DNA of 43,530 nucleotides from a virus (lineage: Duplodnaviria > Heunggongvirae > Uroviricota > Caudoviricetes), in the IMG/VR virus record IMGVR_UViG_2734482773_000003, positions 1 to 43,530 of that record. One strand, 5' to 3'. A program made the position numbers and the translations under genes. Positions 17,988-35,993 of the stretch are shown here, piece after piece. Position 1 is the first letter of the stretch; each line of letters begins with the position of its first letter. The notes under the pieces are model-generated. The model worked only from the letters and a program-made list of their open reading frames with translations. It did not search any database and had not been told where the DNA came from.

Positions 17988-18063
17988 GCTGATTTAGCTC
18001 AGTAGGTAGAGCGCCTGCCTTGTAAGCAGGATGTCGGCGGTTCAACTCCGTCAATCAGCACCA
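17988..18063 (+). tRNA. tRNA-Thr (anticodon UGU)
   Basis: 76-nt cloverleaf folded by hand: 7-bp acceptor stem GCTGATT/AATCAGC, D-arm GCTC/GAGC, anticodon stem CCTGC/GCAGG with loop CTTGTAA (U33, anticodon TGT, A37), T-arm GGCGG/CCGTC with TTCAACT loop, encoded CCA. Confidence 0.8.
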
Positions 18064-31521: not shown

Positions 31522-32193
31522 ATGACCGCTTTAACAGATATTGGCGAACTCTCTATCAGCGACAGCCGCGAAGGCGGGAAAGATTACCTGTTACGGCCGT
31601 CATTCGAGGCTATGGCGAGAATCGGCACTCCGGAAGAGATTGTGCAGGCGTATGCCACCATCCACGGGAATGATGTCGCTCAACTCATTGAGGTGTGCAC
31701 CGGCGGGCTGGGCCGCTTTCCTGAATGGCTATCACCTTCATTCAACCGCGCCGCTGAGAAGCTGTTATCAACGTGCATGCTTGTGCTGCAGGCGTGTTGT
31801 GATGATGACCTGACGCCAATGATTGGCGAATGGAAAGGGTGGCGACATTGTGTCGTCTACCGCCCGGGCCAGATGCCGAAGAACGACATCATCGTACTGG
31901 CGCAGCACCTCATGCAGCACGGGGTCGTAGGTAAAGCCAAAGTTCGACAGTTGCAGCGTCACGAGACTGACGAGCGCACTACCGAGTTTAAAGCCTTCGA
32001 CTACATCAGCGCGGCACGAAGTCACTTCGGCATGAATCGCGCCGAAGCTTCGCAGCTAACGATGACCGAATTTCAGATGCTGCTGGCCACGAAATACCCG
32101 GACCAGAAAGGTTTCACTCGCGAAGAGTACGACAGCATCGCCGACGAATACCTGGCTAAACAGGCCGCGCGCAGGGCACAAGTTAGTAGTTAA
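31522..32193 (+). CDS. putative tail assembly chaperone
   Basis: position between major tail and tape-measure genes; 223 aa; no obvious frameshift partner identified. Confidence 0.5.
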   Translation: MTALTDIGELSISDSREGGKDYLLRPSFEAMARIGTPEEIVQAYATIHGNDVAQLIEVCTGGLGRFPEWLSPSFNRAAEKLLSTCMLVLQACCDDDLTPMIGEWKGWRHCVVYRPGQMPKNDIIVLAQHLMQHGVVGKAKVRQLQRHETDERTTEFKAFDYISAARSHFGMNRAEASQLTMTEFQMLLATKYPDQKGFTREEYDSIADEYLAKQAARRAQVSS

Positions 32194-32239
32194 TAAAATG
32201 AAATTTACAAAATTACCTTTTATTTTGCACTAGCCATAC

Positions 32240-32268
32240 TTGCAGGGTTATTGAGTAGGAGTTATAGT
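32240..32268 (+). promoter_or_regulatory. candidate sigma70 promoter for the inserted NYN-domain gene
   Basis: TTGCAG (32240..32245) - 17 nt - TATAGT (32263..32268), in an AT-rich tract directly after the chaperone stop. Confidence 0.45.
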
Positions 32269-32281
32269 TCGCAACAATGAT

Positions 32282-32335
32282 GTGGGCGGCTCGCACCCCA
32301 TACAAGTGAGGTTTACCTCCGCGAGCCTAACCCAC
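32282..32335 (+). other. structured 5' leader element upstream of the NYN-domain gene
   Basis: nested complementarity gtggg/cccac (32282..32286 with 32331..32335) and ggctcgc/gcgagcc (32288..32294 with 32321..32327) enclosing an inner gaggt/acctc hairpin; followed by a C/U-rich tract; the ATG at 32373 lacks a clear Shine-Dalgarno. Confidence 0.35.
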
Positions 32336-32372
32336 CACTCTCCCTCTAATTCCCCGAATTCGGTTAATAAAA

Positions 32373-33005
32373 ATGGAAAGACAGTACGCAGTACTTCTTG
32401 ACGCAGGGTTCTTGCGCCGAAAATTAGGTACTCAGGCAGCACCAATGACAGCTCAAAATGTCGAAGATTTAGTTAATAAAATTAAAGCACGAGCTGAGTT
32501 ATTAGGGATGCGGTTGTATCGTGTGTTTTATTACGACGCTGAGCCTTTCACGGGTACTAAGACACATCCTATATCCAACGCTGTTATTAACTTTGGCGCT
32601 ACACAAATGGCCATTGATTGTAATACATTGTTAGATGAGCTTAAGGTCAAGCCTTTTTTTGCTGTGCGCCTAGGGGAACTCAATTTTAGAGGGTGGAAGG
32701 TTTCTGATGCTGCTCTTCAGTCAGGTGCAGGAGGGACGGCAACAATTAATGCTCATAATGTTTCTCCCAATCTTCAGCAGAAAGGTGTGGATATGAGGAT
32801 CGCATTAGATATCTCATCTATGACTTTAAAAAACCAAGCAGACGTTTTTTGCTTGGTAACAGGTGACTCAGATTTTGCACCCATCATCAAATTTGCGAGA
32901 TCTGAAGGAAAGCAAGTATTCACTTATACTCTCGGTCATAGAGTCAAACCATCTTTGCCTATTCATTCTGACCTCCATATCCCTGAAACGTACGCTAATT
33001 TGTAA
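32373..33005 (+). CDS. AT-rich inserted gene: NYN/LabA-like (PIN-fold) nuclease-domain protein
   Basis: 210 aa; motifs AVLLDAGFL, KGVDMRIALD and LVTGDSDFAPIIKFARSEGKQV match the NYN/LabA acidic-residue signature (from memory); visibly AT-rich; flanked by its own promoter and terminator inside the tail module. Confidence 0.6.
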   Translation: MERQYAVLLDAGFLRRKLGTQAAPMTAQNVEDLVNKIKARAELLGMRLYRVFYYDAEPFTGTKTHPISNAVINFGATQMAIDCNTLLDELKVKPFFAVRLGELNFRGWKVSDAALQSGAGGTATINAHNVSPNLQQKGVDMRIALDISSMTLKNQADVFCLVTGDSDFAPIIKFARSEGKQVFTYTLGHRVKPSLPIHSDLHIPETYANL

Positions 33006-33023
33006 ACTTTAATCATTTCTTAA

Positions 33024-33047
33024 AACCCGCTTCGGCGGGTTTTTTTA
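33024..33047 (+). terminator. intrinsic terminator after the NYN-domain gene
   Basis: hairpin aacccgc-ttcg-gcgggtt 33024..33041 followed by tttttt; same hairpin core as at 30675. Confidence 0.55.
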
Positions 33048-33062
33048 TGTCCGGAGAACGAC

Positions 33063-35993
33063 ATGGCAGGTGAGAAAAACGCCGGTAGCATCGTTTATGA
33101 AGTCAGCGCCAATATTGAGCCGCTGCTGCAGGGCGGTAAACAGGCCATTGATGCTCTGGATAAACTGGATGCTGCAGCCCAGCAGTCCGGGAAGGGAATG
33201 GATAACCTCGACCAGAGCACGTCTCAAACCGGATCCGCTTTTACTGAACTGGCTGGTTATGCCAATTCCATGGATAACCAGCTGCGCAAGCTGAACACCA
33301 ACGTGAGCGGAATTGCCCGCGCTATGGAAGAGGCCCGCAGCGGTACCGGCGGCGCGAGCAGTGAATTCAGTCGCGCAGAATCAATCATCGAGGCGCTGGG
33401 TAACCAGCTGGCTGTGCTGGACGAAGCGCAGGAGAATGGCGCGCGTAGTGCCGCGGTTCTGGCAGCCCAGCTCCGAGCCGGGTCAAAAGCTACAGACGAA
33501 GAGAAGCAGAAGATCGGCGAATTGACTGGGCGGCTCTTCGACATGAAAGGCGCTGCTGATACCTCGATGGGCAGTAATAAAGGCTGGAAGGCCAGCATGC
33601 AGCAGGCTGGTTATCAGGTTCAGGATTTCATAGTACAGGTGCAGGGCGGCCAGTCTGCGCTGGTGGCGTTCGCTCAGCAGGGGTCTCAACTCGCTGGTGC
33701 ATTCGGTCCCGGCGGCGCAGTCGTTGGTGCCATAATCGCGCTTGGTTCGGTGCTGGCTGGCGTGCTGATTACTTCGCTGAATGGCGGCAAGAATGCCATG
33801 GATGCGCTGAAAGACGCAGCTGAAGCGATGGATAAGGTTATCACCATTTCATCGCAAGGCGTGGCCGCGCTTTCCGACAAGTATGCTGCCCTGGCGCGCG
33901 TAAATGCCGACGTGGCTACTTTGCTGAGAAATCAGGCACTGCTCGAGTATAACCAGGCGATCTCAAAGATTCCTAAAGCCATTAGTGACGCGTCTGATGC
34001 TTTCATTACGTTAGGCGATCGCGCACTGGCGGCTGTTGGCGGTGCGTCTCCAAGCATCAAAAAGTTCAACGATGAGCTTTCTGCGCTTGGCGTTACCACA
34101 AATGACTGGAGCCAGGCCATTCAACAGGCCAACAGTCAGGGGCAATATGCCTCTGGCATTGTGAACTCTTTATCTTCAACGGTCAGCACGCTTTCTTCAC
34201 GCCTCGGCATCAGCAAGCAATCAGCGTTTGATCTTGCAAGAGAGTTATCAGACCTGAGCAACAACCCGTCGCCTGAAGCACTTCAGGAACTGGCGAAAAA
34301 GCTCCAGGAAATGAAGTCCTCCTCCAAAGATGGGCAGTCAGCCATTGCTGAGCTGGCTGGTAAACTTGTCGATCTGGCAAGAGAGGCAGCCAATGCGAAG
34401 ATCAATGTAGACAGCCTGAATAAGTCCACGGATAACCTTACCGCCGGACAGAAGAACCTGATCAAACAGTCCGAGCGCAACCTGGCACTCTCGAAGTTGC
34501 AGGGCGAGGCTCGCGCACGGTTGCAGGCGCAATACGCTGCCGAAGATGCTGGATTTGCGAAGGATGATCCGCATGCCAAGCAGATGGAAGATGATGCTGC
34601 CGCTACGTACAAAAATACGGAAGAGCAAAAGAAGCTTAAATCGGAGCAGAAAAAAGGAGCATCTCAGGCAGAAACCATTGCTCAGAAGCTGGCGAACCTG
34701 AAACAGCAGTCAGAACTCGCTGCCTATTCAACGAATAAGCTGAGCCGAGAGCAGGCTATTCTGAATGCGCAGCAGTCGCTCGGGAAAGGTGCCACCAAAG
34801 AGCAGATAGCACTTGCCGGTCAGTATGCGGCCAAAAAATGGGACACCGCCAACGCCATTAAGGCTCAGGCTGCAGCGGAGAAACTTCTTCCTGAGGCCCG
34901 CGAGAACGCCAGCTACAGGCAGGATGTTGAGGACCTGAATACCGCTCTGGCTGCGAAGAAAATCAGTCAGGAGCAGTTCAATCAGACATCCGAGCGACTG
35001 GAAGCAACTCACCAGGCCAACCTTGCGAAAATCCGTGCCGATCAGGCTGTCAGCCCACTGCAGGAAGCTGCTGGCGGTGTGGATCCGGTGCAGCAACTGG
35101 CGAATGAAAATGCCCGAAAACTCGCGCTTATTCAGGCTTACGAGCAGCAGGGGATTATTACTCACCAGAACGCGCTTATGCTGCGCGCATCAGCTGACAG
35201 GGAGTACGAGCAGGCTCGCATCGCGGCGCAATGGGAGATTTTCCGTAACCAGAGCGCAGGCAATGAAGCGCTGGCGGCGTCCTTTGATGCACTGGCCGGT
35301 AATGCGTCCAATGCCTTAACCGGCATCATCACCGGGAGCATGTCAGCTTCCGATGCTCTGCGCTCGATCGGGAATACCGTACTGAACAGCCTCATCAACA
35401 CCTTCGTCCAGATGGGCGTTGAGTGGGTTAAATCGGCAATCATGGGGCAGACGGCCACCACTGCAGCGGTTGCAGCATCTACCACGGCGCAGGCAGCAGG
35501 CATTGCCACTACCACGGCGACGTCTACCGCGGCGGCGGCGGCCACAACTGCAGCATGGACGCCAGCGGCCATCATGTCCTCCATTGCGTCATTCGGTGGA
35601 GCGGTGGCGATCGGCATCGGAGCTATGGCTGGCATCCTGGCACTGTCAGGAAAGCGTAAGAACGGCGGGCCGGTTAGTGCAAGCGGAATGTATCAGGTCG
35701 GCGAAGGTGGAATGCCGGAGATTTACCAGGCCAGCACCGGTAAGCAGTACATGATACCGGGCGACAACGGCAAGGTGATCAGCAACAAGGAAATGACTGC
35801 CGGAGGCGGTGGCGGGGTAATTTTGAATATCAACAATTACTCTTCAGCGTCGGTCGATGCACAGGCTACGCAGGGCAGTGACGGCACCTGGACTATCGAT
35901 ACATTCATCGCTGACATGAATAATGGTGGACCAGCAAGCCAGGCTATTACCAGCAATTTGAACGTTAAGCGCACGCCAAGGGGGCAGGGCTGA
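33063..35993 (+). CDS. tail tape measure protein
   Basis: 976 aa, largely alpha-helical Ala/Gln/Leu-rich with hydrophobic Gly/Ala segments; canonical position after the chaperone. Confidence 0.85.
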   Translation: MAGEKNAGSIVYEVSANIEPLLQGGKQAIDALDKLDAAAQQSGKGMDNLDQSTSQTGSAFTELAGYANSMDNQLRKLNTNVSGIARAMEEARSGTGGASSEFSRAESIIEALGNQLAVLDEAQENGARSAAVLAAQLRAGSKATDEEKQKIGELTGRLFDMKGAADTSMGSNKGWKASMQQAGYQVQDFIVQVQGGQSALVAFAQQGSQLAGAFGPGGAVVGAIIALGSVLAGVLITSLNGGKNAMDALKDAAEAMDKVITISSQGVAALSDKYAALARVNADVATLLRNQALLEYNQAISKIPKAISDASDAFITLGDRALAAVGGASPSIKKFNDELSALGVTTNDWSQAIQQANSQGQYASGIVNSLSSTVSTLSSRLGISKQSAFDLARELSDLSNNPSPEALQELAKKLQEMKSSSKDGQSAIAELAGKLVDLAREAANAKINVDSLNKSTDNLTAGQKNLIKQSERNLALSKLQGEARARLQAQYAAEDAGFAKDDPHAKQMEDDAAATYKNTEEQKKLKSEQKKGASQAETIAQKLANLKQQSELAAYSTNKLSREQAILNAQQSLGKGATKEQIALAGQYAAKKWDTANAIKAQAAAEKLLPEARENASYRQDVEDLNTALAAKKISQEQFNQTSERLEATHQANLAKIRADQAVSPLQEAAGGVDPVQQLANENARKLALIQAYEQQGIITHQNALMLRASADREYEQARIAAQWEIFRNQSAGNEALAASFDALAGNASNALTGIITGSMSASDALRSIGNTVLNSLINTFVQMGVEWVKSAIMGQTATTAAVAASTTAQAAGIATTTATSTAAAAATTAAWTPAAIMSSIASFGGAVAIGIGAMAGILALSGKRKNGGPVSASGMYQVGEGGMPEIYQASTGKQYMIPGDNGKVISNKEMTAGGGGGVILNINNYSSASVDAQATQGSDGTWTIDTFIADMNNGGPASQAITSNLNVKRTPRGQG

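Follow-up and report, generated by a model that had tools for sequence, protein, structure and literature searches.

A conserved leader RNA accompanies a predicted NYN-fold nuclease gene in a moron inserted between tail genes of a Cobrasixvirus-like phage

The 43,530-nucleotide virus record IMGVR_UViG_2734482773_000003 of IMG/VR (positions 1 to 43,530; hereafter, the window) represents a Cobrasixvirus-like temperate siphophage that carries, in the junction between the gene at the tail assembly chaperone position and the tape-measure gene, foreign moron DNA with its own putative promoter and its own terminator. This DNA encodes a predicted NYN-fold nuclease, and the nuclease gene is preceded by a structured leader RNA. 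Morons and NYN domains are both familiar kinds of element; the obligatory and uncatalogued leader RNA is the new part. Our preferred reading, held with moderate confidence, is that the hairpin formed by this RNA is a cis-acting operator that the NYN protein itself would recognize or cut, resulting in negative feedback and, where a U-run follows the hairpin, in attenuation.

In the window, the leader forms a hairpin of three helices:

32282..32335, plus strand: 5' leader RNA motif, three-helix hairpin (covariance model R1, 61.4 bits, E = 5 × 10−16)
32282-86 paired with 32331-35, plus strand: helix P1 of the leader
32288-94 paired with 32321-27, plus strand: helix P2 of the leader
32295-32305, plus strand: 5' bulge of 11 nt between P2 and P3, aCCCCAUACAA
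32306 and 32308-11 paired with 32316-20, plus strand: helix P3, with the loop UUUA

The segment 32278-32340 has a folding energy of −24.8 kcal/mol (z = −3.6), not equalled by any of 200 shuffled sequences; with filters off, the leader is the single significant match of R1 in the window. The initial annotation, made from the sequence alone, had placed nested helices at 32282..32335, and both the fold and the R1 match bear out this location; the description as nested helices was nevertheless an understatement, given that the folded leader is a conserved, covarying RNA linked to the NYN clade beyond phages. Following P1, the window leader continues into a CU-rich tract, with no U-run. Tandem Repeats Finder (TRF) detected no tandem repeats within 32000-33200, and no antiterminator pairing alternative to the leader hairpin was evident. 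Two other interpretations of the leader were rejected. A leader peptide (a 10-codon open reading frame, ORF, starting with the ATG at 32279) differs in length and sequence in Serratia and Klebsiella, and other clades have no AUG there; a tRNA-like element was suggested by the 3' CCCACCA, which is limited to the enterobacterial copies, and ARAGORN made no call there.

No match to the window leader was found in Rfam 15 at E values up to 10, and among 20 homologous loci no Rfam 15 model matched the leader at the gathering threshold, nor at E values up to 10 in the two loci checked at that level. A literature search, which covered few subscription journals, returned no description of the NYN leader RNA. 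Among catalogued RNAs, DUF3800-I to X in Rfam are structured RNAs found 5' of a single protein family, in mobile or prophage settings. The NYN leader resembles the DUF3800 RNAs in being a structured RNA specific to the upstream region of a single protein family but, unlike them, matches no Rfam 15 model. As a side observation, one contig of a metagenome-assembled genome (MAG; L017, 2398-2460) contains a DUF3800-IX RNA (43.1 bits, above the gathering score) approximately 450 nt upstream of its NYN leader.

The same leader architecture was found upstream of all examined homologues (protein identity 40-86%). It begins with a tail of about 10 nt rich in purines and continues with P1 (5-7 bp), a small internal loop, P2 (6-7 bp), a bulge of 9-11 nt on the 5' side, and P3 (4-5 bp, mostly capped by a tetraloop), the 3' strand of which continues directly into P2; after P1 comes either a U-run or a CU-rich tract and then the start codon, 7-44 nt from P1. 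The motif spans 52-58 nt. Two covariance models were built, R1 for the gamma-proteobacterial type, which includes the window, and R2 for a second subtype, from beta-proteobacteria and others; the A-U-N-N-A-A core of the bulge (e.g. UACAAUCCAAG and GACAUAUAACAG, and CCCCAUACAAG in the window) is common to both subtypes. R1 gave one match per locus in 58 of 88 mostly genomic loci and in 24 of 76 viral loci, in every case immediately 5' of the NYN gene, with no match elsewhere in the approximately 1.2 Mb searched, and R2 added about 50 loci of beta-proteobacterial and other types. Taken together, the two models account for roughly 130 loci, in beta- and gamma-proteobacteria and their phages, each with a single copy of the RNA directly 5' of its NYN gene.

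The covariation analysis of the leader, which the initial annotation had put forward as a check, was strongly positive. In the R1 alignment, 87.7% of the cells are paired, compared to 72.3% in shuffles, and 16 of the 18 pairs show double-sided changes; the covariation score is 0.442 vs. 0.167 for shuffled alignments, with none of 500 shuffles reaching the observed value and a maximum of 0.153 in the slid controls. In this alignment, P2 and P3 are 97% paired, and P1 shows lower pairing because one subgroup is shifted by one register. For the second subtype, RNAalifold independently recovered the same architecture from a sequence-only MAFFT alignment (96.8% of the cells paired, 11 of 18 pairs compensatory). 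When all 61 leaders were aligned globally with MAFFT, the RNAalifold consensus was nearly empty owing to the different registers of the subtypes, and the split into two subtypes solved the problem. About 10% of the cells are G.U pairs that would read A.C on the opposite strand; thus, the sense RNA is the folded species. This pattern of conservation bears on the possibility that the leader is a generic 5' stabilizer, insulator or terminator that functions without specific recognition. The hairpin is GC-rich and very stable, and 5'-terminal stem-loops protect mRNAs; however, a generic stem would not be expected to fix a 52-58-nt geometry of three helices together with an A-U..A-A bulge across proteins that are 40-60% identical, and we consider this explanation very unlikely.

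The association of the RNA with the NYN gene is strict, and no protein partner accompanies the pair. No neighbour gene is conserved, a cluster shared beyond NYN being found in at most 4 of 80 genomic loci; the neighbours are diverse housekeeping genes and a few restriction-modification genes. This leaves the NYN protein as the sole constant candidate for a partner of the RNA. Exact-pattern scans of the viral collection found the motif only beside NYN genes, the exceptions being chance matches without structure. These observations are relevant also to the alternative under which the hairpin would sense a factor other than NYN, whether as a riboswitch-like aptamer or as a site for Hfq or RNA polymerase, and would switch termination or translation. 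Compatible with such a sensor are the conserved internal-loop sequence on a covarying scaffold, the use of P1 as a terminator stem in many lineages, and the tails that flank the hairpin, which are purine-rich (ARN-like) on the 5' side and U- or pyrimidine-rich on the 3' side. Still, the motif accompanies a single protein family, which has no metabolic link, and no other gene; there is no evident antiterminator pairing, and the window copy has no terminator at the hairpin; and no Rfam riboswitch family matches, so that we regard a sensor of this kind as improbable.

The other elements of the cassette in the window are:

32240..32268, plus strand: putative sigma-70 promoter (−35 TTGCAG at 32240-45, 17-nt spacer, −10 TATAGT at 32263-68)
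32336..32372, plus strand: spacer between leader and gene, CACUCUCCCUCUAAUUCCCCGAAUUCGGUUAAUAAAA, pyrimidine-rich and then A/U-rich, without a Shine-Dalgarno sequence
32373..33005, plus strand: predicted NYN-fold nuclease gene, 210 aa, with the motifs LLDAGF, KGVDMRIALD and GDSDF
33022..33049, plus strand: intrinsic terminator from the terminator scan, AAAACCCGC-TTCG-GCGGGTTTT at 33022-33043 followed by a T-run (9-bp stem, UUCG loop)

The ORF at 32373..33005, with the acidic signature motifs noted in the initial annotation, is present, and the proposal that its product is a nuclease of the NYN/PIN fold gained support from several sources. The protein matches Pfam NYN (PF01936) with E = 1.3 × 10−12, over residues 131-186 only, and the AlphaFold2 model, built from an alignment of 38 homologues, has a mean confidence score (pLDDT) of 92.3 and adopts the NYN fold according to fold comparison. 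Neither single-sequence nor profile search identified a relative in the PDB, fold comparison alone giving matches. Among the 38 homologues (41-86% identity), conservation is complete at D140, D165 and D167 and at least 90% at D10; R99, W108, Q136 and K137, located in a beta-hairpin insertion of about 40 residues, are conserved as well. The conserved insertion (residues ~96-137) lies outside the coverage of the NYN structures of 150-162 residues and distinguishes the protein from other NYN/LabA-like nucleases (PF01936; the MARF1 NYN domain, 5yaa and 6fdl; VPA0982, 2qip), as does its single-domain organization, without LOTUS or OST-HTH partner domains. We infer a single-domain, metal-dependent NYN-fold nuclease, most likely an endoribonuclease. 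In PHROG, the protein matches family 5783, to which no function is assigned (E = 1 × 10−67); PADLOC-DB v2 gave weak, partial and sub-threshold matches of about 50 residues each (HEC-09, E = 4 × 10−4, and an NYN model, E = 8 × 10−4), and NCBIfam gave only weak or sub-threshold ones. The family comprises 596 representatives (50% clustering, E ≤ 1 × 10−10), nearly all of them stand-alone proteins of about 200-225 aa.

E. coli A14 harbours a 100% identical copy of the NYN gene in a prophage that is partly deleted, and there RefSeq and the Prokaryotic Genome Annotation Pipeline (PGAP) start the protein WP_052322663.1 at an internal ATG (186 aa; NZ_CP028760.1, L001 20252-20812, corresponding to window 32445-33005). 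Judged by the N-termini of homologues, the long start at 32373 is the correct one, and the RefSeq start is 24 codons late; the short model loses strand beta-1 along with the first catalytic aspartate, D10.

The upstream sequence places the hairpin close to the predicted transcription start, near 32274-32277. The putative promoter agrees with the consensus at 3 of 6 positions of the −35 box and 5 of 6 positions of the −10 box (8/12 in total), and a consensus promoter scan made no call at TTGCAG-N17-TATAGT (32240-32268). Thus, the near-consensus promoter that had been proposed falls short at the −35 element; the key bases of both elements are, however, conserved in homologues. Specifically, in seven aligned upstream regions, four or five of which are distinct (proteins 60-86% identical to the window protein), CTTG of the −35 box and TA...T of the −10 box are invariant, and the flanking bases vary. 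Among 66 distinct leaders, a TANNNT box most often ends 16-21 nt 5' of P1, and because this −10-like box keeps a fixed distance from P1, the hairpin would constitute the 5' end of the transcript. Downstream of the hairpin, no GGAG-type motif precedes the window ATG, in agreement with the initial annotation, and an SD-like (Shine-Dalgarno-like) 4-mer occurs in only 13 of the 66 leaders, which is close to the chance rate by our own estimate. At least 8 of the 10 nucleotides after P1 are pyrimidines in 39 of the 66 leaders, and a run of at least 5 U residues directly follows P1 in 25 of the 66, mostly of the second, beta-proteobacterial subtype; where the U-run follows, the hairpin looks like an intrinsic terminator.

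Under the preferred reading, the cargo would be a two-part module, mobile by itself in the chromosomes of beta- and gamma-proteobacteria and in other accessory regions of prophages, one part being the NYN nuclease and the other the bulged hairpin of 52-58 nt at the extreme 5' end of an mRNA that lacks an SD sequence. The 11-nt bulge on a coaxial P2/P3 stack would be recognized, and possibly cut, by the NYN protein, and the hairpin operator would hold a potentially harmful RNase at a low, controlled level, in a feedback of the type of RNase E, RNase III and Regnase-1; in the lineages with a U-run, the hairpin would additionally attenuate transcription. Known cases of autoregulated RNases are the hp2 hairpin in the 5' untranslated region of E. 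coli rne, the rnc leader, and the stem-loop of mammalian Regnase-1. Like these, the NYN gene specifies an RNase mRNA with a conserved hairpin, the sequence-specific internal loop of which is a putative feedback target; unlike in these cases, the hairpin is located at the extreme 5' end and doubles as a terminator in many lineages. The module is presumed to be expressed in the lysogen and to benefit the host, probably through exclusion of, or defence against, other phages; the benefit appears plausible because of the moron anatomy and because a distant NYN relative is located between cI-like and N-like genes.

Several observations weigh against operator function or the associated role in the lysogen. 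The U-run in 25 of the 66 leaders would release a discrete small RNA, as fits an RNA that acts in trans; attenuation is not universal because the window copy has no U-run; and the defence role is unsupported by the context outside prophages because the PADLOC matches are weak and the chromosomal neighbours are mostly housekeeping genes. Furthermore, about seven independent loci retain an intact hairpin next to a truncated, frameshifted or deleted NYN gene, whereas a purely cis-acting leader would be expected to decay along with the gene, unless the losses are recent.

These orphan hairpins come from a metagenome scan with a 22-base pattern of the gamma-type hairpin, which yielded 12 loci, a biased sample because only intact RNAs can match; only 3 of the 12 have a NYN ORF that is intact or cut off by the contig. 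In the other loci, the NYN gene carries an internal deletion (L184) or a frameshift (L192), is reduced to its first codons (L186 and L194, in the class of 15-29 codons), is replaced by an ORF for a VapB-like antitoxin (L187 and L193), or is absent (L185/L189 and L190), with the deletion boundary in L185/L189 located right after the U-run of the hairpin. The hairpins of the orphan loci score 69-80 bits, as well as the others. Some of the NYN losses look recent. The NYN gene is often lost while the RNA persists, which is the pattern expected for a costly or toxic gene.

The same loci bear on the main alternative, a type III-like toxin-antitoxin (TA) or abortive-infection module in which an excess of hairpin RNA would neutralize the NYN RNase, and shut-off of transcription would let the RNA decay and free the nuclease. 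Type III TA systems (ToxIN, CptIN, TenpIN) consist, in this order, of a promoter, a structured RNA, an optional terminator and an endoribonuclease gene. The NYN module shares this element order, from the promoter through the structured RNA, with a U-run in 25 of the 66 leaders, to a nuclease gene without an SD sequence; it shares, too, the absence of a conserved protein partner and a mobile, sporadic distribution, with any detectable NYN relative found in 7 of 5,426 complete E. coli genomes. Also in line with an antitoxin RNA, hairpins with full covariance model scores survive where the NYN gene is broken or deleted, including the L185/L189 boundary just past the U-run, and the distant NYN relative occupies the cI-like/N-like position in lambdoid and Stx2a phages. 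The differences are, however, substantial. The RNA is a single hairpin, without tandem direct repeats (none detected by TRF, and one covariance model match per locus), and the nuclease has the NYN fold rather than the ToxN/AbiQ fold. In the window and in all enterobacterial copies, there is no terminator between the RNA and the gene, which implies a 1:1 ratio of RNA to mRNA, although one is present in 25 of the 66 leaders elsewhere. The orphan sample is biased towards intact RNA by the pattern used. Finally, one Acidovorax MAG (contigs L028 and L085) contains two diverged NYN modules, with identities of 44% and 42% to the query and one hairpin each; P1 and the bulge are nearly identical in the two hairpins, and P2 and P3 differ by compensatory changes, which gives no sign of specificity between cognate pairs. 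On balance, we consider the RNA-antitoxin alternative unlikely, if less so than a sensor or a generic stem. Equally tentative is the broader proposition of a new two-component system, in which a single, non-repeated RNA from the 5' end of the NYN transcript would gate the NYN RNase as an antitoxin or sensor, forming a portable moron device for abortive infection or exclusion.

The insert and its flanking genes are:

31522..32193, plus strand: DUF6246 gene, upstream flank (Pfam DUF6246, E = 7 × 10−72), at the tail assembly chaperone position by synteny only
32178..33050, no strand assigned: moron segment inserted relative to Enterobacter phage CobraSix, 873 nt, with the last five DUF6246 codons replaced and the right edge just 5' of the ribosome-binding site of the tape-measure gene
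33063..35993, plus strand: tape-measure protein gene, downstream flank, 976 aa (PGAP: tail protein, tape measure; TMP_3 in the Serratia homologues)

Comparison with relatives that lack the insert, as suggested in the initial annotation, delimits the foreign segment: CobraSix has no cassette, and there the gap between the DUF6246 stop codon and the tape-measure ATG is 12 nt. The match of the window to CobraSix ends at ...CAGGGC (32177) and returns at CCGGAGAAyGACATG (33051; CCGGAGAACGACATG, read by eye). In agreement with the AT-rich composition reported for the gene, the GC content is 0.40-0.43 over 32200-33050, compared to 0.55-0.60 on either flank, and the terminator attributed to the cassette is located just downstream of the gene. 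An AT-rich inverted repeat of 15 nt (AATAAAATGAAATTT / AAATTACCTTTTATT, 32192-32224) marks the left edge of the insert, directly 3' of the DUF6246 stop codon, and may be a remnant of the junction or act as a weak terminator. In phage ENT1, the same junction holds an unrelated minus-strand ORF of 98 aa (L002 3707-4003), and likewise in BHUENT3 and BHUENT6; because these phages hold a different ORF there, the chaperone/tape-measure junction appears to be a recurrent cargo site in this group of phages.

The insertion between the gene at the chaperone position and the tape-measure gene is thus as initially described, whereas the view of this site as unusual did not hold. The junction is the site of HK97 gene 15, the element for which the term 'moron' was coined (PMC3594210), so that the position of the insert is archetypal. 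HK97 gp15 is a small inner-membrane protein of superinfection exclusion (Juhala et al. 2000; Cumby et al. 2012; reviewed in PMC3594210). The cassette in the window resembles HK97 gene 15 in its slot, in having its own promoter (putative here) and terminator, in its deviant GC content and in its absence from relatives; unlike in HK97, the cargo is a predicted cytoplasmic NYN-fold nuclease together with a conserved leader RNA.

The DUF6246 gene lies between a Big_2/tail-tube-like gene and the tape-measure gene, and in CobraSix-type phages it is the sole ORF between the tail-tube-like and tape-measure genes. Its role as a chaperone is proposed from this position alone: no obvious frameshift partner ORF of the G/GT type was seen for 31522-32193, and no structure and no relevant literature were found for DUF6246.

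In Serratia prophages and a metagenomic relative, the NYN gene directly follows the DUF6246 gene and is itself followed by more accessory genes and then by the tape-measure gene, so that the slot is enlarged to a multi-gene accessory island (Serratia L006-L009 5800-9300; the metagenomic L004 1500-5230). The genes after NYN in these islands encode Arc, P22_AR_N antirepressor-like, KilA-N-type and helix-turn-helix proteins and small ORFs, and a further ORF of the islands has an N-terminus resembling that of a lipoprotein. Each island unit of L006, the Serratia locus that was read, has its own terminator, and the NYN gene has its own terminator in all examined tail-slot copies; repeats of the type 'AACCCACC' downstream in the Serratia loci are ordinary terminators of the adjoining morons and were ruled out as second copies of the motif.

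The module is not confined to this slot. Its other settings are a Klebsiella lambdoid prophage, where it lies in the nin region, a P22-like accessory region adjoining torI in E. coli EC6563, and the surroundings of housekeeping genes in many environmental proteobacteria. This distribution is pertinent to the possibilities that the NYN gene is a tail or lytic gene of the phage itself, or that the palindrome is a DNA recombination site similar to the attC of integrons. The gene reads in the direction of the late operon and is found right after DUF6246 in diverged Serratia phages too; yet it is absent in CobraSix, an unrelated minus-strand ORF takes its place in ENT1, and the same module occurs in the lambdoid nin region, the P22-like accessory region and housekeeping surroundings. 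As for a DNA site, the G.U pairs and the upstream promoter point instead to a transcribed, sense-strand RNA. We consider both possibilities highly improbable.

The E. coli A14 prophage (L001), compared with the window over 1-1214 and 23472-43530, is a deleted derivative of a window-like phage: approximately 22 kb (window 1215-23471) are gone, the scar contains a TnpB-family gene and a truncated pseudogene of the Acb1 family, and the tail region including the NYN cassette is kept at 98-100% identity. The window prophage also carries a tRNA-Thr gene (anticodon TGT) at 17988-18063.

Distant NYN relatives (26-27% identity) occur in lambdoid phages. In phage ev099 (NC_049953.1, L183 2998-3855), the gene is annotated as a coding sequence of 285 aa and sits between a cI-like repressor gene and an N-like gene, a gap that we take to be the rexAB position of lambda; relatives of this type were found in 48 records of Stx2a-converting phages. 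Upstream of equally distant relatives in IMG/VR (L151-L163) lie a TTGACA-N17-TATAAT promoter, a long hairpin of another kind and a U-run.

It is unfamiliar for a structured RNA to accompany a single nuclease family across chromosomes and unrelated prophage slots, and the leader described here constitutes a new RNA family suitable for submission to Rfam. For WP_052322663.1, the analysis corrects the RefSeq start codon and regains the first catalytic aspartate. The module offers a directly testable idea of how a stand-alone RNase stays harmless, namely, through a feedback operator or an RNA antitoxin, and provides PHROG 5783, as well as hundreds of proteins annotated as 'NYN domain-containing protein', with a candidate function. 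Conceivably, the same logic may apply to the distant NYN genes of Stx2a-converting phages.

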